Made by a program: the position numbers and the translations under genes
From: Schmidtea polychroa
Taxonomy: Eukaryota
NCBI GenBank assembly: GCA_044892525.1
Contig: CM097885.1
Span: 140,306,001-140,370,000 of the forward strand
Direction of reading: 5' to 3'
DNA: 64,000 bases
Shown: positions 21,846 through 64,000 of the stretch, piece by piece
Numbering within the stretch: the stretch's first letter is position 1
Layout of the letters: each line of letters begins with the position of its first letter
Notes under the pieces: generated by a model
Database searches by the model: none
What the model was told of the DNA's origin: nothing
Seen by the model: only the letters and a program-made list of their open reading frames with translations

Positions 21846-22003
21846 ATTTAATTAAACGACTCCACAGACGAAATGTTTGCTATGGAACGTATCTCGTTTA
21901 AAGGACGGTCTTTGTAATTTTTCCTATTACTTCCTGTAATCGATCCTATTTCATTTACTTCAGATTCTGACGTGACATCATTTTCAAGGTCTTCATACGA
22001 ATA

Positions 22004-29366: not shown

Positions 29367-29691
29367 CTGAATGAAAACAATAATAAAATTCCATTGCTCG
29401 CTGTCATGTGCGTAAAGGTGATTCGATTAGTTGCGTAAAATTAATAGATGAAGGATGGGGCAGGTCACCCCGATCCTGAAGACACCCCATAAACTATAAG
29501 GCCCAAATACAATCACAGAGAAAATAATTTAGTATATGAGGAAGACACATGACCAAATATAATATTAACAATTTTAATAAAGTAAAAATTCTACAATTTG
29601 TCGTATCAACTACTAATGAAGTCAAACACAATCACAATAACATTATGTCAGATTGATCACATAGTTTGTTTAAGCCACCACCGCCGTCGGA

Positions 29692-33517: not shown

Positions 33518-36500
33518 TAGGGTGGGTCGAATGTTAATAAATTTTGAGTTCAAGAAAGGAAACATGGTTAAAAAGTTGTATTTTGGTATAGAAAAATCGA
33601 ATCAAACCATTTTACTTAGATTTATGGACATTTACTGCTCCCAACTTTTCTCCGAAAATGCAGTTCAACATAAGTGTGAAAACAATGTAATTTGGCTAGT
33701 GTCGGAATGTGTTTTGCGCCTTTGTCCATATTTAGATGTAGCTTTCTTAAGAGCTTATAAGTATATTATTTACTCTCTTGGGCTGAGATAGTATATTCTG
33801 TGTCCTCATCCCGCATTGAAATATATCCTGACAACGTCAGTGATTAGGAAGGGCCAAATTTGAATTATCCTTTTCAAAGACAAAAATCAACTTTCGAAAT
33901 TATTTTTTATTAAAAACATCCAGCCAAAAGTTTAGAAATGTATTAGCGAGGGCATAAAAAGAAGTCACATGAAATCAGCTTTGCTTTGCACCTTGGGCAA
34001 TTCCTTCCTTGATTTTTTACACAGTAGTACCATACCATGTCTGGACTTGTGACCAAACACTTTGCAACTGGCAGAAGAAACATCTTTGATGGCTCTTTCA
34101 ACGGCTTGAGAATGACAGGGAAATTGTTCTAATGTAATTTTCTTATTCATCTTCAATTCATGATCCAATATATGAGATAAAAGAGGGGGAGGCGTCAAAT
34201 TACATTTTGTCCAGTCAATCATGTCAGCATATGATGTAGCAGACGACTGAAGAAAGACAGTATTCTTGTCCATAGTGCGAATCACTTCGGAAGGGAGAAA
34301 ATTTTGTCTTGCAGTTATGATTTTTTCTGTTGCAAACTTTCTGATTTCTTCATCATCATCACCAACAGCAGCTAGGAGTATATTTTCTGGATGTGAGAAG
34401 TAATTGTTGTTCTGAATGACAGGAAAGATGATTTCTTGGTCTGATGGATCCAAATCCTGCAGAAGTTGGAGCATATAAAAAATATTTCTTGCACCATCTT
34501 GGCATGACGAGTGAATCTTTATATAAAACCATGACGGTCCATAGAAATTGACAATAAATTTCACTATTCGCATGAGAGGTTCAGATGGAGCAGTTTCGGA
34601 CATATATAGTCGCAGAATTCTATTAGCTTTCGTTAGCCAGCGACTGTGATTCAAATTTCCTGGTTGTGCCATTTGTAGAAAAGGGACATCCTTGTTGTTG
34701 TGGTACCCTTTCTGGACTGCCAAGCATACTCTGAGGAAATACAATTGATCAGTGTTCAATTCTTTCTTGACATTTTCACTAATATCTACGACCTTTACAG
34801 GAAGGGACATAAAGGCTACTACGGGCTTGTCTTTTGGATCAAAATCAAGAACGCTTCCTATTTCACCACATGACGTTTTTGGACCTTTTGTTTCTCCACC
34901 ATCGACGACTGAAAAATACTTCCTGAATGGCAATTCATTTGCATGCAACAAGCATATCAGCCATTGTAGAGGTCGCCCTAGGCTTTTTTCGAGTCTTCTG
35001 ATTATTCCATTATTTTTTCCGGTGTTTGTATTGGTTCCATCGCACACAATTGCTTGAAGGGTCAGTGAGGACTGCGTGCTAACGATGATTGACATGATTT
35101 CTTTGCCAATATCCACAGCTTTACTACTTTGAGGTACAACATGATCGATATATGTATCCCCTGGAAAGGCGACAATCACATAATGCTCCTCTTTTAGGAT
35201 CCTTCTATGAAGTAAGGTGGAATCTTGTTTCCCGTCGAAACCGAGGCAAATCAAGTTTTTCGCTTCTGCTGAATGCTGTTCAATTTCTCTCTCCCTCCAG
35301 TACTTTCTCTGACGTCGTAATTTTGCGGGATCGATGATTGTTTGAGAGGATAACAGTTCCATATCTTTCAGAAAAGCGTTTACTAGCAAACACGTGTCTC
35401 TGTTGCTCACACCACATCTGTCAACAGCTTTACTTAATTCAGGATAATGTCTTCTATTTTGAAATTCATCACATTCTTCTACGCTTGACTCTGAGCTTTC
35501 TGTTGAATTGTCTAACTTATCTTTACTTTCATCACTAGCGGCTTCACTCTCCGTGTCACTTCTTGAGGTCGGATGTAGATCGTTAACTTCAGTGTCCATT
35601 ATTTCATTTTTCATTTGTTTTCCTTTTCCTGTAGGGCTGCTTTTCGCTTGTTTTCTCTTCAATTTTGAGGTTTCCTGTCTGTCCGTATTTCCGATTTTCA
35701 TGTTTCTGGTAGTTTGTTGGTCAATCCAGAACTCCCACTCTAAGGTAGGAATTTTCAAGGCCAATCGGCATGTACACTGACTTCTTCCACGAGCACCATC
35801 ATTAAAACATTTGCAGCAACATATGTCAAACAATTTGGAAAACGAGCTTAACTTATCTTGAAATTTGGCAGATGACCTCTTGCATACTGGATACTTCTCT
35901 AATTCACGCACTTTTGATATTAGTCGCTTGACACGAACCACAATACTACTGAACTCAACAGTTGGGATACTTGCCTTCATATAAATTTCCTTCACCTTAT
36001 TTGCGAGAAGAGTTGCTTGTTCGTTAAAGCCAGTATGAAATTGCGTACATTTCTCATTGTAACAGTAATCACGAAACACATCTTCACAAGTAGGTAATTG
36101 GTTTCTGGGTAGTTCACAAGTTTGACCAAACAGACAATGACGTGATTTACTTCTTGTTTTGCGAAATTGCTTATTTCTCTGTCCCTTCATAACTGCTCTT
36201 CTGTACTCAGCTCTGGCAAAATAAAAGTGAATCATCAAGTTAACTTTTTTAATTATGTCCAACAAACACTTGACATCCAATCGAAACAAATTAAATTATC
36301 TGAGTTTAGACTGACTAGTAGTATCCATGTGGATTATGTGTTGACTGTAGTGTGTGTGTTAGTATTGTTCAGAAGAAATTGTCTTTGTGAGTGCTTGTGT
36401 GAAGGTGCTTCCGTGAATTAACCTCTCTATACATGCACGCGTTAGCTTGGACTTGTGAATAGAGCATGTCAAAAATGGTCTTTCTGCAAGCGTGTGACTG

Positions 36501-39190: not shown

Positions 39191-40985
39191 TGTTGGGTGG
39201 CTTAGGGGTGTGTCATTTTAATTTTGAATGTGTTAGGGGTACTTATAGATGTTGAATCGAATCCTTCCTAAACGCCTTCATGACTATTGTCGTTATACCA
39301 TCTGTGTACCCATGGGGACAACCATGTTGGTGCTGTTCACAATGGCTGAAAATCCAAAAGCAGGTGAGCTCCATTGCTAAAACTACTCCTCATGATATTT
39401 TCATTTTGGGTTCTGGACTGCCGATAGAAGGTCTTACGTCATTGTTCATTATCAATCCTGTTTTTAGATTATTGTCATATATACATTTCATTGTGGACTT
39501 CATTTCTAGATGTTTGCTAATGTTACCTTCAAAAATTTGCTCAGGGATCCTCCTTTATTTTTCTGTTAATAAATGTTACTATGTGTTTTCCATAATATTT
39601 ATGAACATTTAACTTATCCTTCAAAACGTTTTGAGAAGGGATCTGCCCTTATTTCCAAGTTAATAAATGTTGTTCTATACTTTCTACAATATTCAAATTA
39701 TTCTTCAAAAATTGTAAGAAGGGATCTGCCTGTATTTCTAATCCTAACATATGTATATATCCACTAAAATATATCCATATCCACTAAAACTCTTACAGCG
39801 ACGGACCCGAAAAGAAGCCTCCACATTACGACTCGAAATCAGCTGTGTGGTTGAAAAAGCCAGTATACCCACCAGTCTCAGCATCCCGAAGGTACGCCAA
39901 ACCATGGTATGCTGAAGTTCCACTCCACTATATCTATTGTTCATTAACAAACATAAAAATTACAAACTAGAAATTAGCAATTAAAAAGAACCAAAAAAAA
40001 TAACTAGAACTAAAATTAATACAAAGATTTATTACCTTAAAACATTACATAAAAATTACAAATTATATAAAATTACGAAATCCAATTCAAACTTACCAAG
40101 AAGACATAAACCGAAGACTGAGAGCGTCACAAAATGTTTACACTGTCTGCAAACCAAGTTTGATTTCAAGTTGAAAACTAGTTGTTGTATGTTAACTGAA
40201 TTTTCAATCAGTATTTATACTGATTTTGACTGTGCATCCATGCATTCTCTGCCACTAGATCCAATCAGAATGCAGTAATTATATATTTTTAATTTAATTG
40301 ATTTAATTTTTATTAATTTCAACAATTTAATTTTATATATTTTATAATTTTAATAATTTTAGCTAATTTTATTTTAATTTTACTTAATTTTAACCATTTA
40401 ATTCTATCAACTTTATAATTTACATAATGTTAACTAATTTTATTTTATAATTTACATAATTTCAGCTAATTTTACTTTAACTTTTATTATTTTATCAGTT
40501 CTACTGGAAGTTCTTTAGTTTCAATTTTTAAATGTATTTATTTCTATATTTTATTTCATTTAATTTTTAAATAATTTTTTCCTGTTCCTTTTCTTAAAGT
40601 ATGCCCTCATTGTCAAAGCTCCTTAGTGTGTAAATACGAGCCATAACATCCCTAATTAATTCGATTATGGTGTTTTGATTGTAAATACGATCAACAATCC
40701 TTCTTAAAATTTATTTTCATATTATTAGTTAATTTATTATCAATTATTTTATTTTCTAGTTGGCAGGTTTTTTGAATGTGATATATCTCTTAACTGTGTT
40801 GGTGATTGTAACTTTATGCGTTTCCTGATTTTATTATACATGTTTTATTTATTCTCAATGTGTTATATACTTTATTTTGTATTATTTGGTGTATGATCAT
40901 GGATTTAAATTCAACTTAGTGCGGCTTTTATGTTATGTATTTTCGATTCATTAAAACAAACGCTCAACCCGGTTCTAGCCCAACG
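39191..40985 (-). mobile_element. Internally deleted long LTR copy (subfamily 1)
   Basis: Starts cGTTGGGCTAGAAC at 40985. CCAAT at 40261, TATAAATA at 40219-40212, donor cttg|gtaagt at 40096, structured motif 39796-39930, GCCGATAGAAGG at 39420. There is no ORF. The left end is tentative and no TSD was found. Confidence 0.6.
39796..39930 (-). ncRNA. Conserved structured cis-RNA candidate (motif 1)
   Basis: Homologous to 49877-50005 with compensatory stem changes and a cUUCGg loop. Confidence 0.55.
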
Positions 40986-46833: not shown

Positions 46834-47418
46834 TGTTACCCATACCCCGGTATTCCTCCCTCGTGTTGGCGGGCACTACTCGGTTGACCACCCTTAGTTC
46901 AACTTTCTAGTCTAGGGGATGAATGCCTGTTACAATTATATCTTTCATTACTGTGTCACCCCCGAGCAGGGCCCGTACATAATCTATACTCCAACATAGC
47001 ACCCGTGAATTGCTTCACGTTGGAACTGTGCTATGCCGGCGAGACGCCAGTAAGCAGGTGAGCCACCATCTTCGGACTACTCCTTACTGAGGCCTCGACT
47101 TCCTACCCCTGACTGCCGATAGAAGGACTTACGTCTGCTCATTCTGTCACCCTGTCGCCATACTCTTGATTTAGATTGCAACTGGGCCATACTCCTCGAA
47201 TCTCAAAACACTCAATGCCATTTACCACTCAATGTAAATTCCTTATGAACGAAAAAAACAAAACCCGTATACAGACAAAAATTGTTTATTTCAAACATTG
47301 TAATACAGGCGCGTCGTAACTTATACATCAGAATCAGAATAAGAGAACACAAAGACAGGAAATGATGTTAGTTGATTCAGGACTCTCCGAAGGATGAGGT
47401 CACTTCACGGGAAAATCC

Positions 47419-48168
47419 TCAATTTTCCCACTCGGAGTCGGCGAGTAACTCGTCCAAATCGAAGAATTCGGAGGCGTTTTCCTCCCACATCACTCCAGCG
47501 GCAGATACGATCCGCCCTGGTGTTCCTGTTGTTAGGTTAATTACAGCAGGGGCGTTATTGACATTACTACCGAGGTCAGGCAGTTGCTTGGACTGCTTTG
47601 CGGCTATCCGCTCACGCTGTTTCCTTTTACGTTCGGCCCTCGATAGCTGCCGACGCTTTGGTTTGTTGGTCGATGAATTGTTTGGGGCTACCGCCGATGT
47701 AGAGGCGACGTTAGGCAGTACCCGACTATTTCCAACAAAAACTACCTCTAGTTGCCCTGGCGAGAGTTGCGTTTCTACGCACGGCCGGCAAGGTTTTTTC
47801 GAAGGGGGCGATGATTTGGCCGAAGTATCATGGTGGGTCGGAAAGAGATTGTCGGCGTCACCGATGGGGAGTTTCACTATCTTCCTAGTTGCCGTAGCCT
47901 GGATGTACACTTTATGCAGCGCCTCGGACTGCTCCTTGATCAAACTTCTTTGGGCACGACTCTCGGAGATTAGAGCGTCCCGGCAATGTTCACTTCGGTG
48001 TAATTTCTTTTGGGTCTCTTTCATCTGGGCGGGACTAAACCATGTCCCCTCTAACTCGTCTATTTTCTTTTTGTACCGTCCGATCTGGGTCTGTAGGTCC
48101 TTGATTATTGCGTTCTTGTCGGAACAAGAAAAACAGGGCCTGAGGACGGATTTTGCATTGGGTAACAT
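47419..48168 (-). CDS. LTR-encoded 249-aa protein: CxxC, coiled coil, basic NLS-like segment, acidic/aromatic C-terminus
   Basis: Intact ORF preceded by the acceptor ctcttcttag and followed by AATAAA at ~47290. Homologues at 257, 26376 and 29366. Confidence 0.8.
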   Translation of the reverse strand: MLPNAKSVLRPCFSCSDKNAIIKDLQTQIGRYKKKIDELEGTWFSPAQMKETQKKLHRSEHCRDALISESRAQRSLIKEQSEALHKVYIQATATRKIVKLPIGDADNLFPTHHDTSAKSSPPSKKPCRPCVETQLSPGQLEVVFVGNSRVLPNVASTSAVAPNNSSTNKPKRRQLSRAERKRKQRERIAAKQSKQLPDLGSNVNNAPAVINLTTGTPGRIVSAAGVMWEENASEFFDLDELLADSEWEN

Positions 48169-49876
48169 GTCTGCTAGCTAAGAAGAGTAATAACACTAAA
48201 TGGGATAAATCAAGTTTAGAAAATCATCATCTTCCGCCACTATTCGTTAATCAGTATTAGACAGTTTTACCGGAAAAGAAAAACGGATTATTTATCAAGA
48301 GGGATTTCCTATGCCATCGACCTATGCGGGCTCTAGGTGTTTATTCACTAGAAAACCAACTGGCAACATAAGGCTTTACTTAACGAAGGTTGTACGTCAT
48401 TGTTAAAGAAAATGAAAATTGCATGTTTGAGAGGAATTATTGATGACGGAAATTTTCCTGAAGAGATAAATAGCATTGAAAATTCAACCCGAACTACATA
48501 ATCACTAAGTGAACATTTAGCTAATCATTATAATGATTTTATAGATAATTAGATAAGTTGGTTGTAATTTATTATTAATTGAAAATGTTAAATTTTAGCA
48601 GTTCCATTAATAGACGTGAACTAATTGAGTTGAATTTATTTGTATTTTGTTTAGGCTTTCGATTATATTGTCTATATTTTATTATAATTTGGTTTTCAAA
48701 TCTCACATTTATTTACTATTTTAACATAAATTATTGAGTTGTTGGTGACTCATGTTATCATCACTCATGTCTGGTGCTTTCGGTAAATAGCCGAGATTTT
48801 CATCTGACACACCCGGTGGATTTTTCTCAAGTTAGCCGTTCGTGGTGAATTATCTACTATCGGGTTAGATGACTATGCGATCTCAATAAATGTGTCACCT
48901 GGAAGATAGACTCGTAGAATTACGGCCAGTGATATCTGTGTTATTATTGGTGAGCACTAGCATGTGGACTTTGGTTATTAGAACTCGCCATGTGTGCATT
49001 TACACATGTGTGCGGGTACTCACTTCGTGAGACTCTTATCCTATTCGGCAGCTTGCATGAATCATCAGATGTTATATTATACTGTGTTGAATTTCTATCT
49101 CTCATGAAAATTTTGCATAGGAAGATTTTGCGTAACGTTGTTTCTGGATGGCATTCGTTTCGTAGACAAATTGGTCAACTATTCAAGCTATGGTTTCTAC
49201 TCCCCTCATGGATTTTATCATTGTCAACATGCCCATTATCTATATCGAGTTGGAAATTATTTAACTATCGCTGGAAATACAATTCGACGAAATGCGGAAA
49301 TTCTATCATCCTCTGTGACATTTCTAAGACTCGGATTTTTCTCCCATGGAGGGTTGGTCGGATCAGTTATCTCTCACCCTACCTTTGCATCAGTTGACAC
49401 AGACGTTTGGCATTCGATATATAAAGGAAGGACTTATTTAAGTGGTTTTGAAATATATTTTTCTTGATCAGATTCGTTATTATCTCATGGTTTATTATTT
49501 TTGAGAACTATTTGTTTTCCACAATCCACCACAAGTAGGGTTTAGAGGGACGTATCAAAATTGATTGCACGTGATAAACATAGCTGATAAAAATAGCAGT
49601 TATGAAAGTTGGTAGGTTGAAGGTTTCAGGAATAATTTCGAGAGGAATCACGAACGCAGAGGATATGCTACAAATGGTGCCCAGACTGATTTGACGGAAA
49701 GTCCTATATAGATCTTCAGATGGTAGTAACAATTTCAATTTGCTAAAGACGATAGTATGACGCCCTCAATCACCATGCGAACTCTCGAACGAGATTTTCC
49801 TCATATGACTACACTTCTCATTGCTTGATAGTTACCCTCTCTCTACAGTATCGTCCACATATTTTAGTCACATCTT

Positions 49877-50005
49877 CAGCGACGGACCCGTGAGGAAGCC
49901 CTCACATTACGGCCCGAATCAGCTGCGTGATTGAAAAACGCCATGTCCACCGGCTGAGCTCCCGAGGGCACCTCACACCATGACATGGAGTTTCTCAACG
50001 CCACG
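49877..50005 (-). ncRNA. Conserved structured cis-RNA candidate (motif 1) downstream of the LTR splice donor
   Basis: Stems ttgagaaac/gtttttcaa, ccatgtc/gacatgg, cagc/gctg, gggcc/ggtcc and gtgagg/cctcac. Most G-U pairs favour the minus strand. Confidence 0.55.
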
Positions 50006-50222
50006 TTTCTCGGAAATTTATAATCATTAAATAAATATGCATAAAAATCAATCAGAAAAAGTTCATAATAATTCATTTATTAAATAACTAAATCCTCTAA
50101 TTAGCAAATGTATCATTAGGAATCAAACGAAAGGACAACTGTTTTCAGTTTAAATTTATAATTATTTCATAAAATTACATGACTACTATTACTTAGATAA
50201 AGTATAAATCGAAAAATTCCTT

Positions 50223-50495
50223 ACCAAGTAATTTGTATAGATTTTTAGGCTGAGTCGGAAGGTATCGAATCGAATAAATGGTTACTCGAAATTTACGTCG
50301 ATTGTTAACTGTTTGATAATATCTCCTGGTTTCTAGATTGATTCTCGTACGTTGCTGCTGTTTACCTGTAAAGTTGGTTGTTTAACGGTAACTGTTAAAA
50401 TTTGTCTTACCTGTAAAGTTGGTTGTTTAACAGTAAGTTTATAATTTTTGTGTTTCCTTATATATTAATTTTTGATGTGTGCGGACCAATCAGAA
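50223..50495 (-). promoter_or_regulatory. LTR promoter (CCAAT 50486-50490, TATA-like ~50458-50466) and 5' splice donor (cttg|gtaagg at 50224)
   Basis: The same order, ccaatcagaa then TATA then cttg|gtaag, is conserved at 40261, 40215 and 40096. A 25-bp direct repeat at 50362-50386 / 50407-50431 contains further donor-like sites. Confidence 0.55.
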
Positions 50496-51099
50496 TTGAG
50501 TGCCGCTTAATTTTATTGCTTTAATTTATTTTTCTTGTTTTTGAGTTATTTTTTCCTATTTTCTTTATTTTTATTGTGTTTTTATTTATTTTCTTTAATT
50601 TCTTTATTATTTACTACATTTTACGTTATTTTTTTGTCATTCTATTGTCCTATTTTAATTTTCCTTATTTTTATATTTTTTTGTTTTAATTCCTATTTTC
50701 TAATTTTTTATTTTTCTTATATCCTATTCTATTTTATTCTTAAGTTTGTTTGTTTTTTTTTTATTTTAATTTAATTATGTTTAACCTAATTTCTTGGATA
50801 CCCTTCGACTCAGCCCAACAAATCACTCGGGGACCCGACAAAATTGCGTCCCACAATTACATACTTGAGCTACTCTTATTCTCTCATAAAAAGATAAACA
50901 CATTCATAAAAAGATAGCATAGTGATTAACAAAATTATAAACATCAATAGAACTTTATTAATAAGATATAGGTCAAATCAAGACCAAGCAGTCATCACTT
51001 ATGGTGATGGTTTATATACAAAGCAAAATTTTCACAATGTAATGTTTTAGTTCAGTTATGGTATTGTTCGATTATTCTGATGGTTTTGGTTGGAGTTTG

Positions 51100-51720
51100 T
51101 TACTGCGGTTGGGAATGGATATTATGGTAGGCTTGAAGACTGGATGATGGTTGAGGAGATGCTTTGTTGGCTAATCTGGGTGGGCTTGTGGTTTGGGTAG
51201 CATTGGTTATTTCGACTGGGTTTTGTACGGTGGCTCTAGATTTCGAGCTCTGACATTTTTTCTTAACTTCGAGGATTTTTAGGAAGGTTATGAGGCATAA
51301 TGAGATAGTTTCTGCGACCACTACGTAGAGAAGGTAATGGGTGTCGCTGTTATTGGAGGGTGTTTCTGTTGTCTCGGCAGGATTTTCGAACACTTCTTGT
51401 TGAATTTGTTGTTCCAACTGATCGAAGTGTTGGACTTGTTCGAGTATTTTCCGGTCTATCATTCGGCATACAGGGCTATTCTGGCATAAACGTCTGATGT
51501 TGTTAACATATGACCGAACCGATTGGATATTATGGAGGAGGTTGGTTTTTATTGTATTGGGGTATTTGCATTGGCAAGGGTCTGATTTGGCTTTTTGATT
51601 CCGATTGCGGTGGTCTCGTATGCTTGTTGGTTGGGAATTTAATGGTGGTTTCTCCATCAGGTGATTTATCAATACCATTACTGTTATTGTCATACCATAC
51701 CACATTGTACTAATATACAT
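51100..51720 (-). CDS. Accessory ORF: probable single-pass membrane protein
   Basis: Hydrophobic N-terminus, four Cys in the putative ectodomain, TM segment YLLYVVVAETISLCLITFL, and an S/T/P-rich tail. Confidence 0.6.
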   Translation of the reverse strand: MYISTMWYGMTITVMVLINHLMEKPPLNSQPTSIRDHRNRNQKAKSDPCQCKYPNTIKTNLLHNIQSVRSYVNNIRRLCQNSPVCRMIDRKILEQVQHFDQLEQQIQQEVFENPAETTETPSNNSDTHYLLYVVVAETISLCLITFLKILEVKKKCQSSKSRATVQNPVEITNATQTTSPPRLANKASPQPSSSLQAYHNIHSQPQ

Positions 51721-51759
51721 TTATTATTATTATATTATTTACACTGGCTTTAATTGCTT

Positions 51760-52470
51760 TTAGTTAAACGGTTCTGTTTTGGGATTATTTTCGGCGGTTC
51801 TCATCAGGGTAGACTCCGCTTTAATGACCCTGTGTCTCAACTCGGGCAGCATTTCCAACTGTCTGTCCTTTTCACGGGCCTCCCTTTTCATGTGTCTTAT
51901 CTCCTTCTCTAATCTTCTAATTTCTTCCCGTTTTTTATCGAGATTCCTTTTTAGTTCGATTTGCAGGAAATCTTGTTCGTTTTCTTGCGAAAGGTTTCGT
52001 TGTTGTTGTTGTTGCTTTCTCTCGATCTCTTGGTATTTGCGAATCCATTTCTTCATTTCCTCACTTTCTCGTTGTTTTTCCTCCAATTGTCGATTTAATT
52101 TATTTATAGTTATTTGGCGTTCTTTCGCCTCTGTTTTCCAGTAGTCCTGGATTACTTCTTCTGCTTTGAAGCTTGCTCTTTCTTCCCATAATTCTTCTGC
52201 GATCTTTTCCCAATTTCTCCCTCGCTTTCGTTGTTCTTGTAACCATTCATTTCTCTCTTCTACTTCTCTCTTTACTTCTCCTAGTACTTTGCACTCTTTC
52301 TTTAGTACTTTAATTATTTTCCGGTCTCCTATGTATTGGTTTATTAGTCTCTCGTTTTCCCGTCTCTCTTCCTGCAATTCTTTCTTTAGAGTTCGTGTTT
52401 CTGTGGTTTCTACTTCAATCTCTCCTTCTTCCGCTTCACTCATGAGTTCTATTATCTCCTCAATCTTCAT
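51760..52470 (-). CDS. Accessory ORF: E/K/R-rich coiled-coil protein (236 aa)
   Basis: Intact intronless ORF with heptad-like charged helices. Confidence 0.7.
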   Translation of the reverse strand: MKIEEIIELMSEAEEGEIEVETTETRTLKKELQEERRENERLINQYIGDRKIIKVLKKECKVLGEVKREVEERNEWLQEQRKRGRNWEKIAEELWEERASFKAEEVIQDYWKTEAKERQITINKLNRQLEEKQRESEEMKKWIRKYQEIERKQQQQQRNLSQENEQDFLQIELKRNLDKKREEIRRLEKEIRHMKREAREKDRQLEMLPELRHRVIKAESTLMRTAENNPKTEPFN

Positions 52471-52627
52471 ATCTATAATATTTATAATTAATCATGCGCT
52501 ACAGTGCGACTCATACTTATACATTCATATACAGTTTAGGAAATTAGGGTTACAGCCCCTCAAATACTTTTACAATACTTTTAATTTTTTTGTTTGGGAT
52601 ATAAGTCCCGAATTTTTTTTAAATTTT

Positions 52628-53701
52628 CTATCTTTTTATTCGCCTATATACGAAGGTTTCCTCTTGACCCACGTATCCCTCATCGCTCTCGACCGATGCC
52701 TGTAGCTGGATGGCAATGGGGTCATATGGTATGTAATATTGGGGAATTTGAGCTCTCAACTCGTGAACTTCATTTCGTAGTGCTCTAGTGATATTCAATT
52801 CTTCGTCGAGCAAATAGGTGAGGTATCTCGTCTCATCATCTTTGGCTTCTAATTGCCTATCTAACTCCTTTATCTTTTCCTCGCCCTTCCATTTCTCGAT
52901 CTCTATCTCTAGATTTTTGAGGTTTTCGGTATACATTTTCCGTTCGTTTTCCAGCTTCTTATTTTTTCCTGCCAGTACCATATTTCGTTGTTCTAGAGCT
53001 CCCTGATATCCATTGACATCTCGTTCCAGCGCCGTGACCTTATTTATTAGTTCCACGACTCGTCCTGAATGCTGGAGTATCATTTCTTCCATCGCTGCAT
53101 TCTCGTGCTCCTTGATGGAGATTTTCATAGCCAAATGTCTTTCAAACTCCATGGCCTTGGTCTGCCATGTTTGACTTCGGGCGGCAATCTTTCTCAGCCG
53201 TTTGAGTTCCTCTTTTATCACTAGGTTCTCTTCCCATTTGCCTTGTTCGCTTTCGTACTCTAATCTCATAGGCAATTCTTTCATTTCCTTTTTCATTTCT
53301 CTGTTCTGTCGCTTCCATTTCCGGGCTTCGGTCAATAGATGTCGCATCTTTTTCTCCTCTTTTTGTTTTTCGGTCTCTCGTTTTTTATTCTCATCAGTCA
53401 GTCTTTTCCGCGATTCTTGTAGTAGTTGTTTTAGATAGTGACTGTGCGATTCTTGTCGAGTGTTTTCTAACGAAGCCCATTGTGCGGCCCTTTTACATGT
53501 CTCCGCTTCCGTTCTTAAATTGTCTACCAGCCATTGGTATTTGTGAGTTTCGTACTCCCTGGCTTCCTCAATGTGATTTCGGGTGAGGTTAGCTAATTGG
53601 AACATCACCTTGTTCCATTTCTCACTATATTCTTTGGGGATTTGTGTCTTGTTGGTATTATTTGGGGCTATCGTAGTTCCGGTTGTTCTTTCTTGTGTCA
53701 T
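52628..53701 (-). CDS. Accessory ORF: coiled-coil protein (357 aa)
   Basis: Intact intronless ORF with long charged helices. Confidence 0.72.
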   Translation of the reverse strand: MTQERTTGTTIAPNNTNKTQIPKEYSEKWNKVMFQLANLTRNHIEEAREYETHKYQWLVDNLRTEAETCKRAAQWASLENTRQESHSHYLKQLLQESRKRLTDENKKRETEKQKEEKKMRHLLTEARKWKRQNREMKKEMKELPMRLEYESEQGKWEENLVIKEELKRLRKIAARSQTWQTKAMEFERHLAMKISIKEHENAAMEEMILQHSGRVVELINKVTALERDVNGYQGALEQRNMVLAGKNKKLENERKMYTENLKNLEIEIEKWKGEEKIKELDRQLEAKDDETRYLTYLLDEELNITRALRNEVHELRAQIPQYYIPYDPIAIQLQASVESDEGYVGQEETFVYRRIKR

Positions 53702-53897
53702 TTTCTAAATCATATATTCTGATTAAATATCATCGCAGTATTAGATTTTATTATTCAGTTGATGTTTTTTCCTGGATTTTTTCGCTTTAGTTTTGGGTTG
53801 TTGTATTTGCGGATCCCATACTACTATTATATATTATTTTATAGGTTATATACACCGATATATACAGATTTATTATATACAACGTTATTCGCACTGG

Positions 53898-54845
53898 CTA
53901 CTCGGTTCTGCTCTTTCCCTCCTTCCTCACTGTCATCTTGATATATACGGTATCATTTCTCGCCATATCCTCTATCTTTTGTTGTAAAATGAACGTAGGC
54001 GCTCCTGTTGCTGATCCTTCTTCGTCGAGGGGTCTCTGGTAAGCCATCTGATTCCCCGTTGTTTTGAAGCTTTGTTCATGTATACTTTGATTGTTCATTA
54101 TTACAATGTTGATTTTCGACTGAAACGGCCATTCTAATATTTCATCATACTCCCCTTTACATAACAGAAAAAATATCGAAAAGTGTGTGTCTAATCCGGT
54201 TCCGTCCCCGTTGGGATATATCTTCATTTTCATTTTGTATCCATTCTTCCATGAGAGGAATGCGGGACTGGTTATTCTAGTATCTTCTCCAATTTTTGCT
54301 TTTCGTATCTTTTCCTTCACTCCCGAAATTTTCCATATGTAAGGTGCGGTTGGTAGTATTTCATTGAGATTTATTTCGGTTATTTTTTGATCTAACACTT
54401 CGGCTTGCTCATTACTGATTTCCATTCGATTTATTTGCATTTTTATGTTGGCTCGAGCTTGTTCGAGAGCCTCTCTTTCTTCTAGTAGTTCTTTTACTAA
54501 TGCCTTCAGTGAGGTTATTTCTATCTCCAGTTGTTGCACTTTCTCTTCACTTTCTTGCAACGCAGTTGACCACATTTCTGCATGATTTATTACATTTTCT
54601 GTTAAATGGTGTGGTAAGTCTCCTCGGTGTAATAGTTTCTGACAGCCCCATTTACTTAGAACACATCTCATCCTTTTCTTTTCACATTCTTTTAGATGCT
54701 GGGCTAATTTTATTATTCCCCCTTCGTTGCATCCGTTCGGGCATTCGCCACAGAACTCTGCACATACCTTTTCCTCTTGGACATTGTGATGTTTGATGGT
54801 GAGATTTCCTTTGCATCGTACGCCCTTGCTCCTGCATATTAGATA
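53898..54845 (-). CDS. TRAF-like protein: TRAF-type zinc fingers, coiled coil and MATH (TRAF-C) domain
   Basis: YIWKISG...SPAF...GYKMKMKIYPNGDGTG..THFSIFFLLCKGEYDEILEWPF is a TRAF-C signature. The frame stays open upstream of Met 54671 to 54845 and includes CPNGC...LAQHLKEC...C...GC...HHL. No introns. Confidence 0.9.
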   Translation of the reverse strand, partial: YLICRSKGVRCKGNLTIKHHNVQEEKVCAEFCGECPNGCNEGGIIKLAQHLKECEKKRMRCVLSKWGCQKLLHRGDLPHHLTENVINHAEMWSTALQESEEKVQQLEIEITSLKALVKELLEEREALEQARANIKMQINRMEISNEQAEVLDQKITEINLNEILPTAPYIWKISGVKEKIRKAKIGEDTRITSPAFLSWKNGYKMKMKIYPNGDGTGLDTHFSIFFLLCKGEYDEILEWPFQSKINIVIMNNQSIHEQSFKTTGNQMAYQRPLDEEGSATGAPTFILQQKIEDMARNDTVYIKMTVRKEGKSRTE

Positions 54846-55094
54846 CTACTTGTGCTAGTCCAGCGCATTGTTGTTTCCACATATCCTCGGTCGTTGTATT
54901 GCGATTTATTTCGTTATTTCCTTGCTCCATTCTTAATTTTTTATACATTCTCAATCTTTTTCTTATTTAATTTTATATTGTTTATTTCTCCCGATCGTTA
55001 TATATTATTAATACCGCGCTTATATACGAATATAATACTGTTATATACATAAGATATACTTACTTTTTACAATTATATACAGTCATAACCCTTT

Positions 55095-55469
55095 TTATAT
55101 TTGTGGATTTGGAGGGCACTGCATATTCCAGGCCTCCATCCACTGTTCTTGGCTCATTTTACTGGGCCTTTTTACTTGATGTTGAAAATTCCTGGCTCTG
55201 ATCATTTCGAGTTTGTTACGCTGCTGTTTATCTCGGATTATTTTTATCGTCCCCCCCGTTATAGTTATGAACGCTCCGGTTATTATTATTCCGCTGATCC
55301 ATATCATCTGCTTCACACTGATGATCTCTGAGTTTCCATTGTTTGTTATTGTACTCGCTGTTTCTGCATTTCCCTCTTTCTCTGTTTGGCTTTTTCCTTT
55401 CTCCAACCATCGTATTCTTGTTATTTCCTCATTGATCCCTTCTTTTGCCATTTTTTGTATTTTTTCCAT
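55095..55469 (-). CDS. TM plus cytoplasmic segment; probably the frameshifted end of the polyprotein
   Basis: MIWISGIIITGAFITITGGTI hydrophobic helix. The frame is open back to ~55505 and overlaps the end of the 55421-60124 ORF. Confidence 0.55.
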   Translation of the reverse strand: MEKIQKMAKEGINEEITRIRWLEKGKSQTEKEGNAETASTITNNGNSEIISVKQMIWISGIIITGAFITITGGTIKIIRDKQQRNKLEMIRARNFQHQVKRPSKMSQEQWMEAWNMQCPPNPQI

Positions 55470-58400
55470 TTCCTCTTCTGATACGTAGTTATCTTGGTTA
55501 TATCATTGGTCTTCTGACGTTTTCCTTCTTCATCTTCTTCGTCATTGATCTTTCTTTTCTTTCCTCTTTTCCCAGGATATCGTCGACATTCCTTTTCTGG
55601 TCTTTTTCTCACGATACAGACCGTGTATTCCTTTGGCGGTTGTTGTTGTGTTACATATTGTAGACAGTCTTCTCCTGGTCCTAACCTTGAAATACAAACT
55701 TTGTGTTCTTTCCTTGGTTGGAGTTGTGTTATCACTACTTCACCTCCTTTACCCAGGTGCACCTCTTTCCATTTGACTTTCGTTATTCTCTTTCCGTTTC
55801 GATGTTGGTATGCCTCTTGTATTCCCACTTCCGTTATCGGTTCTGTGTCCTCGTTCATCAATACTAATCTCCGATATGCTCTAGACATGCATCTTCCCAG
55901 TATACATCTTTCCTTTAGATCCCATTCCTCCTTCAGATCCCATTGTTGTTCTTGCATTTGCTTTTTCTTTTCTTGCTTTAATTCCTCCTCTTTGTTATCG
56001 TGATTTTCCGCTTCTTTGGTCTCTTTTATCGTTCTCGTCCCTCCATGAGCTGTTACTAACTCTATCATGGTTAGTACAATTATCATTAGTATCATATTTG
56101 TTTCCATTTCTTTGTTGGTGAAGGGTAGGCATACCCTCTGTTTTCCATTATTTGGTTTTTCCTCCTCTTTCGTCTTGTTTCCCGGGTTGTTTCCTTCTTT
56201 TCCCGTACCTGGGTCTTTATTTTCCGGGTTATCCTCTTCCGGTTTTCTTTTCTCTTTGTCCTCCTTTCGACCTCTTTCGTCATTATCATCGTATTTATCT
56301 CCCCCGCTGTCGTTTAAAATGTCGTCCTCGACATTTATATCGTTTAATAGTCTTCGGTATGCTGTTAGTACTCTATTTCTTGCTAATTTAGCTTCAAATT
56401 CAAACTCTTTTCTCCCGGTTGCTGCGTGTCTCTTCCGGTTCCATTCCTTTACTAGTTCTCTCAATTGGATCCGGCGGTGTTTTCCAATTCGTTGTTGTTC
56501 GTTTTGATTTTTCGTGAATCTCAGGTCTTCTCTATTCAATACAATTAATATGATTTTAGGTGTCTCCCCTTTAGTTAATGTATTTTTGACCATTGCGTTT
56601 TCGCCGTTCTCATAAAATTCGTTTACGTTTATCGCATATTTATTACTTTGTGGCACTCTCCATGTCAACAATAATTTCATTGCTTCTAGATTTTTTCGTA
56701 CCGTATTCCACTGGAATTGAGATGTGTTTTTGCAGATATTTTCGACTTCTTCCTTTGTCGCGTTTTTGCAGATGAATCTGATCATTTCTAGGTTTGGCTG
56801 AATGGTTGCCCAATCCATTGTGGAATTTCCTTCGCTTGACTTTTCGTCTAATCTCGATCCTGATTGATGTAGTATATGTAATGTTTTTGGGTGTATTTTC
56901 GTTATAGCTGCATACATCATGGCGGTTTCGCCTTGTTCGTTTTTCGTGTTGGTTTCCTCTCCCAGATCTCTGAGAACTCTTATGATTGTAATTGCTCGGT
57001 TTTCTTTTGCTGCCAATATTGCTTGTTGTAACGGTGTTCTTTGATCCTTGTTCGACATGGTAAATGCTCGTGGCATGAAAGTTTTGATTTTCCCGATATC
57101 TAAATCCGTTGTCTGATCTCTTGCGTATGTATGTACGGTCTTTATTATTTTCGACAATATCATTTCATCTGATAACTCTAGCATTTCTTCAAAGAATACT
57201 TCTTTTGCTTTACGTATTATTGTTCCTTGATCTGAATTCATCGGTTTTGTTTTGATGACGTTATTTGCTGTAGTTTGGTTCGTTGGCGACTTTGATTCTT
57301 TTGACGTCCCCTTCTTTATTTTTATTTTCTTTCCGGTTGGATTATTGATTCGTTCTTCTGCTGTAAGTACTTGAATAATATCCAAGTAATTCTCGCGAAT
57401 GTTGTTCATTGTGTCCATCATATATAACACACTTCCCGTTTCCCAATATTTATTTCGTACTTGGTTAGTGAATTGAAATATTGATTTTTCGAATGTGTCA
57501 ATTCGCTTTTTTAATAACTGCTCATCTTTATGATTTGTGAATTTTATCCCTCGTTCTACTAATTGGTTTGGGATTTCGAATAATTGATGTCCTTTCATGG
57601 CTTCTCTCATAAGCGTGTTCTCTCCTCTCGTGAATGCTTCGTTTACGTCAATCATGAAATCATTTTTAATTGGATTTCTCCATGTAATTAATATTCCGGA
57701 AATTGTTGTTAGTTTCTCTTTGATTGCCGTTAATAATCCGTCATACATGTTTCCGACTTCTCGATTATCCTCGTATGCTAGTAGTTCCATCAACGTCGTG
57801 AACGCTTCGGTACTTTTCCCTTCGATTGCATGATGTAGTGCGTTTTTCTGATTGCGATCTTGTGTGGTTATTTTTGATCCTGTGTCGAGTAATGCGATTA
57901 TAATGTCTTTTGTTTTGCCTCTGTTTGCTGCTATCATTAGTGGTGTGTAGCCTTGGTTATTTTCTTGTTCTGTTGATCTCTTGCAGTCGTGAAATGCTTC
58001 TATTGTTTCTAGTATTTGTTCGTTGTTACCCACTTTCATGAGTTTATGTAATGGTGTGTCTCCATAATGATCTGTTACGGTAAATAATATTGGCCATTGA
58101 CTTTTAACTACTCGTAGCAGTGGATGTGTCCTCTCTCGGTTTGCGTAATTTTCGATCATAGTTAATAGACCTCCTAATATTTCGAAGTCTAGTCTGTCTT
58201 TTGCCCATCCGGGTATCTTAATTTTTACCTCCTTTACAATCTTTTCCGCTTCTGATGGTTGGATACCCAATCGTCCAGTCGTTGGTTCTGCGAGCTGTTG
58301 CATCATGTTCATTCTGTAAGTTTGAGAACGTGTGGTTAACGTACGACCTTCTGGTTGACTGGTGGCTGTTTTTGGGATCGGTTTACATCGTGCTACATTT

Positions 58401-60215
58401 ACGTATATTGGACTGGTGAACGGATTATTTACTAATTTCACTCTTACGTTAGTTTCACCCACAAATAAGATCTCATATGGCCCTTTTCCGTTCCGCTGTA
58501 ATTTTTTCGTGGTTCCCGGAATCAATTCTGGTGTTTCTATCATTACCCAATCACCTGTTTGAAAGGTATGTTGCTTCACGTTTTTCTTTCGATCGTGTAA
58601 ATCTTTATAACTTTCCCGGTAGAACTTGATATTTAATCCCGCAGTTTCCCAAATCTCTTGCATTCTCTCCTTGAATTTTGTGACATAATCGTCTATCTCC
58701 ATATATTGCGATATCGGTGGTTGATATTCCAGGTCCATTGGCATGTTACATTCTCTCCCGTACATTAATTTGAATGGGCTCATTTTCGTTGATGCATGAA
58801 TTGACATTCTATAAGCCATAAGACATAGATTTATGTATTCGTCCCAATCTCGTTGGTGATGGTCGACGTAATTTGATAGCATTTGTATAAGTGTTCCGTT
58901 AAATCTTTCTGTCATCCCGTTGGTTTGAGGATGATACGGTGATGTTCTCAACTTTGAGATTTTGAAGTAATTGGTTACCTCGCTCATTATCTCACTCATG
59001 AAATTGGTGCCCTGATCTGTTAGTATTTGTTTCGGCGTTCTATATCGGCAACATATCTCTTCTACTAAGATTTTTGCGATTGTTTTAGCTTTTTGATCTG
59101 GCATAGCGAATGCCTCTGGGAATTTCGTGAGGTAATCCGTAATTACCAAAATATAAACATTTCCTTTATCCGATTCGGGTAATGGACCAATTACGTCCAT
59201 AGATATCATCGTCATCGGTTCTATTGGTACTGGCATTGGCGTTAAAGGTGCTTTCCATTTTGATCCAGTATTCCTTCTGGTCGCACAAGTTAGACAATTT
59301 TTCACCCATTCGGTTACGTCTTCAGTTAACGTAGGCCAAAAATATTTCTGTTTCATTCTTGCCAGCGTCTTTTTCGATGACATATGTCCTCCCAATCTTC
59401 CATCGTGATATTGCGTTAATAACTCTTTCCGTCGGTTTTCCGGTATACACATTAATCGTTTCTCTCCATCCATTATCAGCAACCAATCTTTCTCTATAAC
59501 GTATCGATGTCGGTGTTTATCCATATGTTCCTTTAATTTCTGGTCTTTCTCGTACACTTCGGTTTTTCCCGTTTTTACATAATCGATAATTTGTTTTAAT
59601 TCTGCATCTTCCTGTTGGTCCTTTCGCAATTGGCAAAAATCCAAGTCTTCCGCTACTATCAAGCATATGCGTTGCATTTCTGAATCTACCAAATCCGGAA
59701 AAATGAATCTCGACATACAATCGGCGTTGGCATTTGCTCTTCCTGCTTTGAATTTTATAAATGGAGAGTATTCTTGTAATTGCATGGCCCATCTCATTAG
59801 TCTACTTGATGCTTCTTTATGTTGCCCTAACCACACTAATGGTTGATGATCTGTGGTTATGCATATCTCGTGCCCCCATAGTAAATATCGGAAGTGTTTG
59901 ATGGCTTGTATTATAGCCAATGCTTCTCTTTCTGTTACTGAATAGTTCTTCTCGTGCTTTTTGAATGTTTGACTGTAATAACCGATTACTCTCTCTTTTC
60001 CCTCGTCATCCAGTTGTCCTAAAATCGCTCCTGCTGCATATCCGCTTGCGTCTGTTGCTAATAAGAACGGTTTCTTGAAATCAGGATGTACGAGGATTGG
60101 TGCTTCAATCAATTTATCTCTCAACGTTTCGAATGCCTCCTGTTGTTCTTTTCCCCAAATAAATGAGATATCTTTCTTTACCAGTTCTTGGATTGGTTTT
60201 GCGATTCCTGCATAA
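55421..60215 (-). CDS. Pol C-terminal part: RNase H, integrase (to ~58380), two ankyrin modules, signal-peptide-like segment, FN3-like domain
   Basis: LATDASGYAAGAIL, ITTDHQPL, HDGRLGGH...CLTC, ISMDVIGPL, LTDQGTNF, TSPYHPQTNGMTER. Ankyrins GDTPLH, GYTPLMIAA, RTPLQQA, GETAMMYAA. Tail METNMILMIIVLTMIELVTA and VITQLQPRKEHKVC. Confidence 0.93.
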
Positions 60216-63200
60216 TTTTTTTATGAATTTTCGGTAATACCCACATAATCCTAGGAACTCTTGCACTTGCGTAACGGTTTTTGGTGCTGGACACGTTTTT
60301 ATTTTTTCGATGTTTCGTGGATCTGGTTCTTTTCCTTTGGCTGACACTATGTGTCCCAAAAACGTGACTTTTTCCTTTGCCCAATCGCATTTTGAAGGTT
60401 TGAGCTTGAGTTTCCATTGTCGTAATCGAATAAATACATTTCGGATATCCTCCAGATGTTGTTCAAATGTCGCTGAATAGATTAGCAAATCATCAATATA
60501 TACCATACATTGTTTGATTCCATGAGTGACAAAGTTCATACACCTTTGAAATGATGTTGGTGCGTTGGTCAGTCCGAATGGCATTTTTCTGAATTGATAT
60601 AGATCTCGTCCCAACGTGAAAGCGGTCTTCTCTTTGTCCTCATCTTTGACTTTAATTTGCCAGTATCCATTTTTTAAATCTAAAGAAGTAAAATATGCTG
60701 CCCCTTGCAACATGAGTAACATTTCATTAATGTCTGGCAATGGATAGGTATCCCTCTTTGTTACTGCATTTAATTTTCGATAATCAATACAGAATCTTTG
60801 CGTGCCATCTTTCTTTTTCACCATGACCACTGGAAACTGCCAAGGTGAGCAACTTGGTTCGATTACTTTTGCGTCTAGCATTTTCTGCACTTCTGCTTCG
60901 GCTATTTCCTTTTGCATCTCTGCTAGTTTGTATGGTCTTAATGCGATTGGAGTTTCATCTATCAGTGGGATTGCATGTAGGGTGACATCACATGTACCCA
61001 AATCCAAATCTGAGATGGCGAATATATCTTTATATTCCACTAACAATCGGTGCAATTTTCTCTTTTCGGCAGCTGTTAACAATGTACTGTCGATTGTCCA
61101 TAATTCGTCATTTTTGTTTACCTCGTTGGTCACTTTTGGTAGTTCTATATCCATCATTGGAGTCAATTTTCCCAATCTTTCATTCTCATAGATGATTTTG
61201 TCTTCCTCTTCGAAATTCGTGATGTTGATCGGTATCACTCCTTCTTGATTTATTGTTATTATTTCTCTAGCGAGCGGTAATTCTCGTCGCTTTTCAAATG
61301 ACTTACTTGGTTCGAAAATAACTTCTCCTTCCATTCCCGTGTCTACTTTTATCTGACAGATCATCTGTGATTTTGCTGGTACTATTATTTTCTCTGGACA
61401 TCGGATTACTGCATTCATTTTGCATATTCTGCCGGTTTTATCCTTTAGACACATGGTTGTCAAGTCGATTACTACTTCTTTTAGTAGTTCTGGCATTAAA
61501 TCTGTTCCGATTATGCATGGTACACTCAGTTTTGGTATTACTGCTAAATACGTTTCGATTTCGTTATCTTGGTATTTTAAGGTGGTCCACCATCTCCCGA
61601 CCACGTCTACTGTTTCTTTACTGCATGCTATGATGTGGATTGTTGTTGACTCGATATCTTTCCAATATCTACTGGGAATTTGATTAATTGCTATTGCTGA
61701 TACGTTAGCTCCGGTGTCTATCATAGCATTTGTTTCTTTTCCATTGATTTGGATCATGACTGTTACTGCCGGACCTCCAGGTAAACTCATTGCTGCTATT
61801 GTCCGTACATCGTCCGCTTGATCTACACTTCTGGTTCTCCTCGTTGGCATATAATTCATTCCAGATTGATTTGGTAATTGCGGATACATATTTTGTGTCA
61901 TATTCATTGGTGCTACTTGTTGTCCGACAATATCTGGTGGTATATAGCTTCCATTGGCTATCCACGTATTTGTTTTTTCCTTTTCCCAATATGGTGCCGT
62001 TTCAATTTGCTTTTCCTTGGGATGTCCACTGGGGTACGGATATTTATTGTTTCCTTCGTCGTCGTCGTCACTATCGCTGTTAGATGATTGACTTCTGAAT
62101 CGGTCCAAGAATTTTGGCTTGTTCTTTTTCAATTGTCTTCTTGTTGCTTCATCGTACATGGTTTTTCGGAATTGTCTACCTACTTCCTCGTCTGTTCCTT
62201 TAATCTTTGTTAAGATTTTAATCAATCGCTTTATTCGATGAATGTCTTTTGAGTGACCATGTAATACCATGGTTTTTGCTAAAAATGGTAGAAACCCTAC
62301 TATCATTTTCCAATTTACTTTCTTTTCTCTCTTGTATATATCGAAACATGCTAACATTTGTGTTAATATTACTCTGACAATTTGAATTATGAGTATGATT
62401 CCCAATATTCCTGCCATCATTTGTCCAAATACTAAGAATCTTCCCCACATTGCTTTCATCATATTTGACGTTGCGTGCTGGAAATGATCCGGTGATAGTA
62501 GTAGTTCGTAATTTGGACCTGATTGATAGTTTGTTCCCCCAGTTATGGTGACCATATTTGACAATATTGACTCACGTCTGGCTGGGAAAAGTATGTTTAG
62601 CCGTGCGGTTTCTAGATCCGCTGGTGAATACATACCTCCGTTTGATACGTCTATGGGCTTGAAGTCCTGCTCCGTGGCGAGTTCTATTAATCCAAACTTC
62701 TTAGGTTCCTCCACTGTGGCCCTTACCGGTAACATTATCCATTTCCCATCGGGTCTCTCGTACAATGGTCCGTACGCATTGGAACAGTTAAAGAGATTTG
62801 GATAGAAGCCTAATGGGTTCATAATTCTAGTAACTGGCTGGACGAATCGATTTTGTCCTTTATAACGAATTTCCAACTCGTTTGCGCATTTCCCTGTAGG
62901 TATTGTGGGTTTTTCTGGCATTCGTGCAAACGTCTTAGTGCACGCATACGTATACATCACTTCGCCCACCATCCTACCAAAATGTCCATCTGGTAATGGG
63001 AGTGATGGCATCGTATTATCAGGGTGCGTTATTGCGATAGCTAGTTTTGTTTTCAGTATCTCTTTATTTAATGAACAATCGTTTTGTATAAGATCGTAGT
63101 ATACTTTTTGCAGTGTCGTTTGTCCGCGATGGAATAAAAAATCCATTTTGTTGTTGGCGTATAGGTACAATTTGACGTCCTCCGTGGCTATCTTTCCCAC

Positions 63201-64000
63201 TGCTCTATCTATTATCTGTCTTGACATGTAGATCCCTGCGTAGTTGGTCTTGTAGACGATACTATCGCATTTGGTGGTCTCCTTTTCTCTGATGAATCTC
63301 ATACCCAGGTCTGGGTCGTCTGTGATCAGTGCCGTTGGTGTTTTTTGTGTTGCGAGCCTCTTTTCCCTGGGCGCGGGTGGTACTGGTTTCCCATTTCGCA
63401 TTCTCACCTTTCCATTTCCATCCTCGTCATCTTCGTTCTCATAAATTTCCCCTTTTACTTCATTGAACAGGGCACTTTTTAACAATTGGAGTCGGCATTT
63501 TTGGGTGTTAGCTTCATATATTATGGTCGAAACCCCCGTCTTGCATACGTTTTCCGTAGCCTTACATATGGGGTTGGTTTTCATTTGATAATTATTGGCG
63601 TCAAATTGTGCTTCGTATTCTTTTAATTCCACTGTATAGGACTCGATTACTACTACCCCCGATATCGCCTCTCCTCTGATCGTATACGTACCTCCGTTAC
63701 ATGTACCATCAGTTGATTTTACGCGTCCGGCTACATAAATGCTTTCGGTTTTAATCATTCCGCTTTGCCCGTGTATCGTTACTCCGTCTCGGATCCTCAT
63801 CGCTCCGGTTCTAAACAGTTCTTTGCAATCCTCTCTTTGTATAGGCACTATTTCTTTATCCAATCCGGGTAGTATGAGAGTTGAATATGAATATTGTCCA
63901 CAGTAATACGCCAACACACGTTTTGATACTACGCACTCCTTTGCCAGCGTCCTGATGAAATCCGATTCTTGATACACGTGATATGAGACCTTTTTGTTCA
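60216..64000 (-). CDS. Polyprotein N-terminal part (5'-incomplete): chuvirus-like class III glycoprotein, TM, aspartic protease, spacer, RT
   Basis: The frame is open to the window edge (NKKVSYHVYQESD...). Glycoprotein Cys pattern: YYCGQYS, DGTCNGG, NDCSLNKEILKTKLAIA, GEVMYTYAC, CANELEI...FVQPVTRI...C...GKW. TM MAGILGIILIIQIV; protease [47 protein letters not shown]. A 1-nt excess in an A7 run (60216-60222) shifts the frame. Confidence 0.9.

Follow-up and report, generated by a model that had tools for sequence, protein, structure and literature searches.

A conserved pair of RNA hairpins in the long terminal repeat of a Burro-type giant gypsy element from Schmidtea polychroa

The long terminal repeat (LTR) of a giant gypsy-type element in Schmidtea polychroa contains a real, evolutionarily conserved pair of RNA hairpins, which likely mark unspliced RNA either for an arginine-rich protein encoded in the same LTR or for packaging. 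The element comprises 129 nt on the minus strand of the window, i.e. the complete stretch of 64,000 nucleotides under study, and is embedded in the 3,957-bp LTR of a 29-kb Burro-type gypsy element. Being part of the LTR, it is therefore present in both LTRs of an insertion and in solo LTRs. The window holds only two copies, both on the minus strand, starting at 49877 and 39796:

50821 to 64000, minus strand: 3' part of the internal region of the host element, with RT/RNase H/integrase, ankyrin repeats, a TRAF/MATH ORF and further ORFs
46864 to 50820, minus strand: 3' LTR with TG...CA ends, 3,957 bp, of the Burro-type giant gypsy element, with a 4-bp target duplication
49926 to 50005, minus strand: domain 1, a long irregular hairpin with a covarying, variable lower helix and a near-invariant AU / GGUG internal loop
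49877 to 49925, minus strand: domain 2, a hairpin directly adjoining domain 1, with a GNAA bulge (49907-49910) and a GCUU loop (49896-49899)
39191 to 40985, minus strand: solo LTR of about 1.8 kb from a small family lacking pol, carrying the second copy
39796 to 39929, minus strand: second, decayed copy of the element within this solo LTR

The 49877 copy folds into two abutting hairpins with a free energy of -61.9 kcal/mol (z -4.5, 0/200 shuffles), as compared with a z of -2.45 for the opposite strand. Domain 1 is topped by a purine-rich apical internal loop followed by a 2-bp stem with a UUCG-type tetraloop, which reads CUCG in this copy. A sequence-only reading of the window had proposed a conserved two-domain RNA structure on the basis of the two copies, and its details are correct: both copies are present, 7/7 pairs form in the 49877 copy and 8/9 in the 39796 copy, and the apical loops are cCUCGg and cUUCGg, respectively. 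The two copies share 78% identity over 112 nt (E 6e-16). Taken alone they are weak evidence, because the 39796 copy has decayed and its fold is not superior to that of shuffles (z +1.17, 182/200). It is the genome-wide copies that settle the question of structure. At least 1,200-1,500 of them exist, as judged from exact patterns, one per domain, that match 1,206 and 1,499 times, while the reversed control patterns of the two domains gave 0 and 0 genome matches; a scan of metagenomes with the element pattern returned 0 matches. Compared with the window copy, 50 copies have a median identity of 0.89 across the element and of 0.57-0.66 across four flanking blocks. Furthermore, contigs from a DNA-like sequencing run (80% identity) pile up on the element to a depth of 102,000-133,000 versus 1,000-6,600 in neighbouring bins, figures that represent summed contig depth and not copy number. 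The element is not the sole structured part of the LTR, as segments near 47520 and 47100 score just as well for structure. Its loops are strongly conserved: 21 of the 31 unpaired columns show 94-100% conservation, and the guanosines in the GGUG and apical loops are near-invariant. The apical loop may resemble stem IIB of the RRE, and the AU/GGUG loop may resemble an 11-nt tetraloop receptor.

Compensatory change across the genome-wide copies bears out the two-domain structure. In an alignment built from sequence only (A3), which holds the 51 distinct copies of the type found in the window element's own, large family out of 89 distinct copies in total, 95.3% of the cells pair and two-sided changes occur at 15 of 49 pairs. 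The 130 two-sided cells compare with 36 in shuffles (0/500) and 3-30 in slid controls, and RNAalifold, unprompted, gives a nearly identical fold. In a G-test the predicted pairs make up 11 of the top 27 among 9,186 column pairs; E < 0.05 is reached by four pairs structure-wide and by one when all pairs are considered. Against a tree-simulated null, domain 1 is clearly supported (0/1,000 on both measures) and domain 2 marginally so (25/1,000 and 65/1,000 on the two measures), the latter because it is too invariant for a good test; these nulls were custom-made rather than R-scape, the tree was built from the element itself, the copies are mosaics, and the same sequences had served to derive the structure. 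The proposal that covariation would back the fold thus held for domain 1 and stayed marginal for domain 2. Since copies were collected by BLAST or by patterns fixing parts of one domain, and extracted by requiring both cores within two mismatches, the invariance of the core letters is partly built in. The alignments leave aside the truncated copies L067 and L098 and an older family (L127-L146), which has the same outline with further changes. No tertiary covariation was detected apart from an alignment-register artefact. The lower helix of domain 1 shows up to four pair types, and such turnover next to fixed loops is as expected of a protein-binding site. In the 51 copies, G-U cells outnumber A-C cells by 338:28, and the median z is -3.7 for the sense and -2.0 for the antisense strand (23 of 89 copies); both observations point to sense RNA.

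As judged from its gene content, the host element matches the Burro/GYPSM1-type giant gypsy elements of planarians. Its internal region encodes gag with zinc knuckles, a RING ORF, RT/RNase H/integrase, ankyrin repeats and a TRAF/MATH ORF. The polyprotein frame is in pieces in the window copy, and a 4,732-aa frame is intact in many other copies. Burro/GYPSM1 has likewise been described as an element of about 30 kb with a single giant polyprotein and ankyrin, MATH/TRAF and RING (IAP-type) cargo (PMC6431247). The excerpted account differs from our findings in that it describes no LTR RNA element, LTR ORF or gag-only satellite family. The partner LTR (G000:C1:140377846-140384252) is located 27 kb away and is 99.5-99.8% identical apart from a 2.45-kb insertion (L032 986-3433), which contains a long microsatellite and interrupts the LTR ORF in the 5' LTR. 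No purine tract is present upstream of the 3' LTR (50821-50860); the same stretch contains a 38-nt block common to the small family (89%) that could form a hairpin with a pseudoknot. An 18-mer like a primer-binding site, which presumably resembles a tRNA-Pro site, is found in both families (about 7820-7845 of L031) and starts 7 nt, not 1-3, past the LTR end.

Elsewhere in the window, two decayed LTR 3' halves (25300-26400 and 28550-29400, minus strand) lack the RNA element and carry broken LTR-ORF homologues, the basic motif, AATAAA and the second donor block. A separate gypsy pol, an adjacent Tc1/mariner transposase and another pol fragment on the plus strand occupy 19749-22815 and 13488-15337. 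The minus strand carries an inorganic pyrophosphatase-like frame (10065-10577) and, at 33965-36295, a frame of 776 aa that matches nothing in Pfam and is probably a transposase.

Around the hairpins, the LTR contains an ordered set of predicted expression signals and an open reading frame:

50457 to 50491, minus strand: predicted promoter with a reverse CCAAT box (50486-50491) and a TATA box (50457-50464)
50406 to 50411, minus strand: second donor-like site, less conserved than D1
50220 to 50225, minus strand: predicted splice donor D1, 218 nt upstream of the element
50076 to 50081, minus strand: AATAAA between donor and element, a possible first poly(A) signal
48169 to 48195, minus strand: predicted splice acceptor (pyrimidine tract and AG) directly before the LTR ORF
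47419 to 48168, minus strand: LTR ORF of 249 aa with a predicted coiled coil, a helical arginine-rich motif and an acidic-aromatic C-terminus
47285 to 47290, minus strand: AATAAA with a GU/U-rich downstream stretch, 3' of the LTR ORF
47128 to 47135, minus strand: second donor-like site D2, in a block common to the small family

The spacing of the CCAAT and TATA boxes, which precede the element by about 460-480 nt, is conserved, and we infer a transcription start about 30 nt downstream of the TATA box. A donor-like RGTARG occurs 195-270 nt upstream of the element in 41/50 copies and an AATAAA 60-105 nt upstream in 31/50, a moderate conservation. A pyrimidine tract with AG precedes the ATG of the LTR ORF in 12/13 copies, and an AATAAA follows its stop codon at 124-141 nt in 9/9. 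As the ORF is flanked by a predicted acceptor and a poly(A) signal, its spliced mRNA is predicted to lack the element, and the simplest reading is a short spliced mRNA wholly within the LTR, the intron of which would hold the element. The sequence-only reading had placed the hairpins just after the major donor and hence in unspliced RNA only, and the conservation of both donor and acceptor is in keeping with that placement. The two candidate poly(A) signals bear the additional possibility that the element also sits at an RNA 3' end. Neither a splice joint nor a usable RNA end was present in the contigs from five sequencing runs; a high U3 depth with a poly-A-like loose end in run X2 was set aside as possible internal priming in an A-rich tract.

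Several further features of the LTR and leader deserve mention. The D2-type donor block near the LTR 3' end (47040-47135 and 39350-39440) is conserved in the large and small families, has a similar counterpart in a sister family, and lies in a region that folds well. The first bases of the LTR (50804-50818) are complementary to 50245-50262 (minus strand), a stretch ending about 20 nt before D1, with 13-15 of 15 pairs in most large-family copies, compensatory change in copies such as L091 and weaker pairing in the small family; this pairing could render the donor of the 3' LTR inaccessible, as is the case in foamy viruses, or close the RNA into a circle. A possible long-range pairing is also suggested by 20/21 complementary nt (E 8e-4) between 50120-50140, a part of the predicted intron, and a leader segment 1 kb past the primer-binding site (about 6830-6850 of L031), a similar partner being found in three other copies. 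Conserved acceptor-like sites at the RING ORF after the primer-binding site (L031 7032-7514) and in the gag region (about 5610) suggest several spliced mRNAs.

The LTR ORF, about 1.7 kb downstream of the element and still inside the LTR, encodes the candidate partner. It is kept open at 63-72% identity within the family and 40% in the sister family, and its basic motif (about 47602-47664; predicted helical, pLDDT about 70) has 9-10 R/K per 17 residues in 10/10 family members. The structure model is a low-confidence coiled coil (pTM 0.32). A word-indexed protein search with the ORF found nothing. A profile search recovered 15 distant homologues, mostly fused to unrelated genes; 10 of the 15 have the basic motif at the same place, and several of these read RNRRRRERRR. 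One homologue (P0005) has a weak Pfam REV match (E 0.0013; 19.1 bits, below the curated cut-off of 22 bits), and the window protein itself has none. A leucine-rich export signal pattern after the basic motif was found in 0/10 full-length ORFs of alignment A5, the sole match among its 11 rows lying in a frameshifted tail. The pattern is a permissive one, and the corresponding segments of P0006 and P0012 do contain it. Nuclear localisation may be all that the basic motif serves, and we take the acidic-aromatic C-terminus to be more like a transcriptional activation domain.

Other families retain or replace the hairpins. The three elements of the small family (14.7-16.7 kb, LTR pairs 99.9-100% identical) have neither pol nor an LTR ORF (3/3), and two of them encode an 877-aa Gag with its own knuckle that is 35% identical to the large-family Gag. 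Loci L073-L076 and L085-L086 represent a young gag-only satellite family of 15-17 kb without pol, the LTR pairs of which are near-identical. Between the large and small families the element is 81% identical over 126 nt and is the longest segment common to their LTRs, the only matches at E < 0.01 being the element and a 25-nt donor-like block. After the primer-binding site, two of the three small elements share almost nothing with the large-family leader, and the third shares 0.7 kb. From mosaic copies such as L070, L120 and L073, domains appear to have been exchanged between the families. In a more distant sister family, the ORF of which has a different basic motif, the same place in the LTR is occupied, after a U-rich stretch, by a different covarying hairpin (98.3% pairing, two-sided changes at 7/28 pairs, 19 copies). 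This hairpin was not detected by the element's model R1, and has the GGUG loop and the 2-bp tetraloop cap in common with the element. The retention in the family lacking pol, together with the different hairpin of the sister family, makes it likely that the partner is element-encoded and supplied by the autonomous family, that is the LTR protein, Gag or Pol.

We tentatively favour the reading, with somewhat less than an even chance of being right, that the hairpins are a response element through which the LTR protein licenses the export of unspliced RNA in the style of Rev/RRE or Rex/RexRE. The LTR would at first give rise to the short mRNA spliced from D1 to the acceptor before the ORF and ending at the downstream poly(A) signal; this element-free mRNA would be translated into the LTR protein, which would bind the internal loops of intron-retaining RNAs and promote their export or shield them from splicing. 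The small family would borrow the protein in trans. Our preference is based on the precedent of RexRE, which also lies in the LTR (PMC12789967), on the exclusion of the element from the predicted mRNA of the regulator, on the retention of the element in a small family without LTR protein yet with its own Gag, and on the finding that invertebrate LTR retrotransposons use such export proteins: CERV, a protein that the nematode retrotransposon Cer1 makes from a spliced mRNA, is needed for export of its genomic RNA (PMC10309623). As in the Rev/RRE, Rex/RexRE, Rem/RmRE and Rec systems (PMC12789967), a conserved structured RNA on the sense strand of unspliced RNA is combined with a small arginine-rich-motif protein encoded by the same element, here a candidate the mRNA of which is fully spliced by prediction. 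The differences are that the present element is of the gypsy type and non-retroviral, that protein and RNA element both reside within the LTR, that sequence homology is lacking, and that the candidate protein of the window family has no export-signal pattern. Cer1 of Caenorhabditis elegans resembles our case as an invertebrate LTR retrotransposon with a spliced accessory protein for genomic RNA export, and differs in that CERV has a cysteine-loop domain and in that no RNA response element is named in the excerpt (PMC10309623).

Binding by Gag fits every feature of the RNA equally well, which counts against the export reading. The zinc knuckles would then recognise the hairpins and restrict packaging to genomic RNA that retains the intron, and by keeping the hairpins the family lacking pol would gain entry to Pol-containing particles. 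Such a role as psi, which the sequence-only reading had brought up, is a serious if doubtful possibility; a division of labour, with one domain for export and the other for packaging, is also conceivable. It agrees with the location in the predicted first intron, with the near-invariant unpaired guanosines, clusters of which drive HIV-1 NC binding (PMC4576207), and with mosaic copies suggesting co-packaging. The element is, moreover, what the LTRs of both families share at greatest length while most small elements have hardly any common leader, and a variable position relative to the donor is known from RSV psi (PMC5035971). On the other hand, HIV-1 psi lies downstream of the primer-binding site (PMC4576207), so that the likeness to the HIV-1 and RSV signals (PMC4576207, PMC5035971) extends to hairpins with unpaired guanosines after a donor and stops at the location: the present element is internal to the LTR, about 3 kb upstream of the primer-binding site, and occurs in every solo LTR and 3' LTR, the transcripts of which could compete for Gag. 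It lacks a palindromic loop for dimer initiation (its loops are UUCG and GCUU), it has not diverged in a small family with a Gag of its own, and the 0.7 kb of leader shared by one small element is another candidate for psi. An element read by a host factor, be it for export in the manner of a CTE or for the control of splicing or of poly(A) choice between identical LTRs, is unlikely. Long hairpins with fixed internal loops do recall the MPMV CTE (PMC12789967), both LTRs have a donor ahead of an AATAAA, as do foamy viruses, in which poly(A) use is governed by U1 binding and RNA structure (PMC3694450), and with a host partner the retention of the element in the small family would be accounted for. 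One motif would however be expected across families, whereas the sister hairpin escapes the model and merely the GGUG loop and overall shape recur; besides, the nearby AATAAA is present in only 31/50 copies and an Rfam match is lacking.

The remaining alternatives have little probability. A signal for reverse transcription or Pol loading on the very long strong-stop region (about 3.5 kb) is quite improbable: the element does have the inferred start site on one side and the primer-binding site on the other, and Pol has to be borrowed by the small family, but the distance to the primer-binding site differs fivefold between the families. A 10-nt stretch identical to the primer-binding site within domain 1 at first suggested primer-site mimicry, an idea we rejected as the stretch occurs in only 32/89 copies and varies with its hairpin partner. 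Self-cleavage by a non-canonical ribozyme, for which a compact, highly conserved sense-strand fold with a GNAA bulge might be quoted, we regard as barely credible. Retrozymes, like the present elements, have a conserved RNA motif in both LTRs that is common to non-autonomous elements, namely a hammerhead (PMC4918200); the elements studied here differ in being large and coding and in lacking a hammerhead core. The element is not a hammerhead, as far as its letters tell. The CUGA and GUC motifs to which the earlier reading had drawn attention do not hold up: CUGA is present before the stem in 54/89 copies and continues there with UU/CG and not NGA, so that no CUGANGA stands 5' of the stem, while GUC is replaced in 27/89 and, in the 62/89 that keep it, is predicted to pair with a 5' GAY. 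The bulge (GAAA in 53, GUAA in 23, GGAA in 11 and other letters in 2 of 89 copies) is predicted to lie within one hairpin. Descriptors of hammerhead types I and III gave 0 matches in both window copies, and the type II descriptor matched once, in the 49877 copy, leaving a single base for stem I. A CUGANGA match does follow the 3' end in some copies (20/89 have one anywhere). Rfam yielded 0 matches in the window at the gathering threshold and, with E up to 10, one unrelated chance match within 49500-50500 that lies outside the element, so that neither a ribozyme nor any other family matches it. Two simple hairpins without a detected covarying tertiary pair do not suggest a ribozyme either, and self-cleavage at this position would sever the template of a 29-kb coding element within the stretch that separates its 5' end from the primer-binding site. 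Equally remote is an IRES or translation enhancer, which a structured element in a long leader might suggest: the nearest conserved ORF follows 1.7 kb downstream behind an acceptor-like site of its own, and the small family has no ORF there. A tRNA origin, considered because of a likeness to tRNA-Lys, was rejected; this post hoc hypothesis gave p values of 0.01-0.6 over nine copies (3/9 at or below 0.05, uncorrected), and no RF00005 or ARAGORN match and no intact B box were found.

Among the papers listed for comparison, on Burro, on LTRs, ribozymes and RNA structure in Schmidtea and on Rev-like export in gypsy elements, none deals with the element. This comparison stops short of the primary Burro papers, and these reports or their supplements (PMC13047482, PMC5797480) may already describe the LTR ORF or its splicing. 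We thus consider the hairpins a real and new RNA element of a known functional kind, without an Rfam family and with an earlier description in the primary Burro papers being possible. A small, covariation-supported RNA and a candidate protein partner thereby become available for one of the largest and most abundant groups of animal retroelements, members of which are reported to affect planarian stem cells and regeneration (cited within PMC13465017). Should packaging prove to be its role, the element would be an unusual, LTR-internal packaging signal. Should the export reading be true, a gypsy lineage has evolved control in the style of complex retroviruses together with a defined RNA target, the latter not being provided by the excerpted account of Cer1 and CERV (PMC10309623), and RNA-peptide co-evolution could be tested directly on the family-specific pairs. 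It is conceivable, albeit rather speculative, that a single LTR even holds a self-contained Rev/RRE circuit composed of promoter, intron with response element, spliced regulator and poly(A) signal, with family-matched protein-RNA pairs and piracy by satellites. In that case even solo LTRs could supply the regulator, and the gag-only satellite would pirate the circuit by keeping and exchanging the RNA element.
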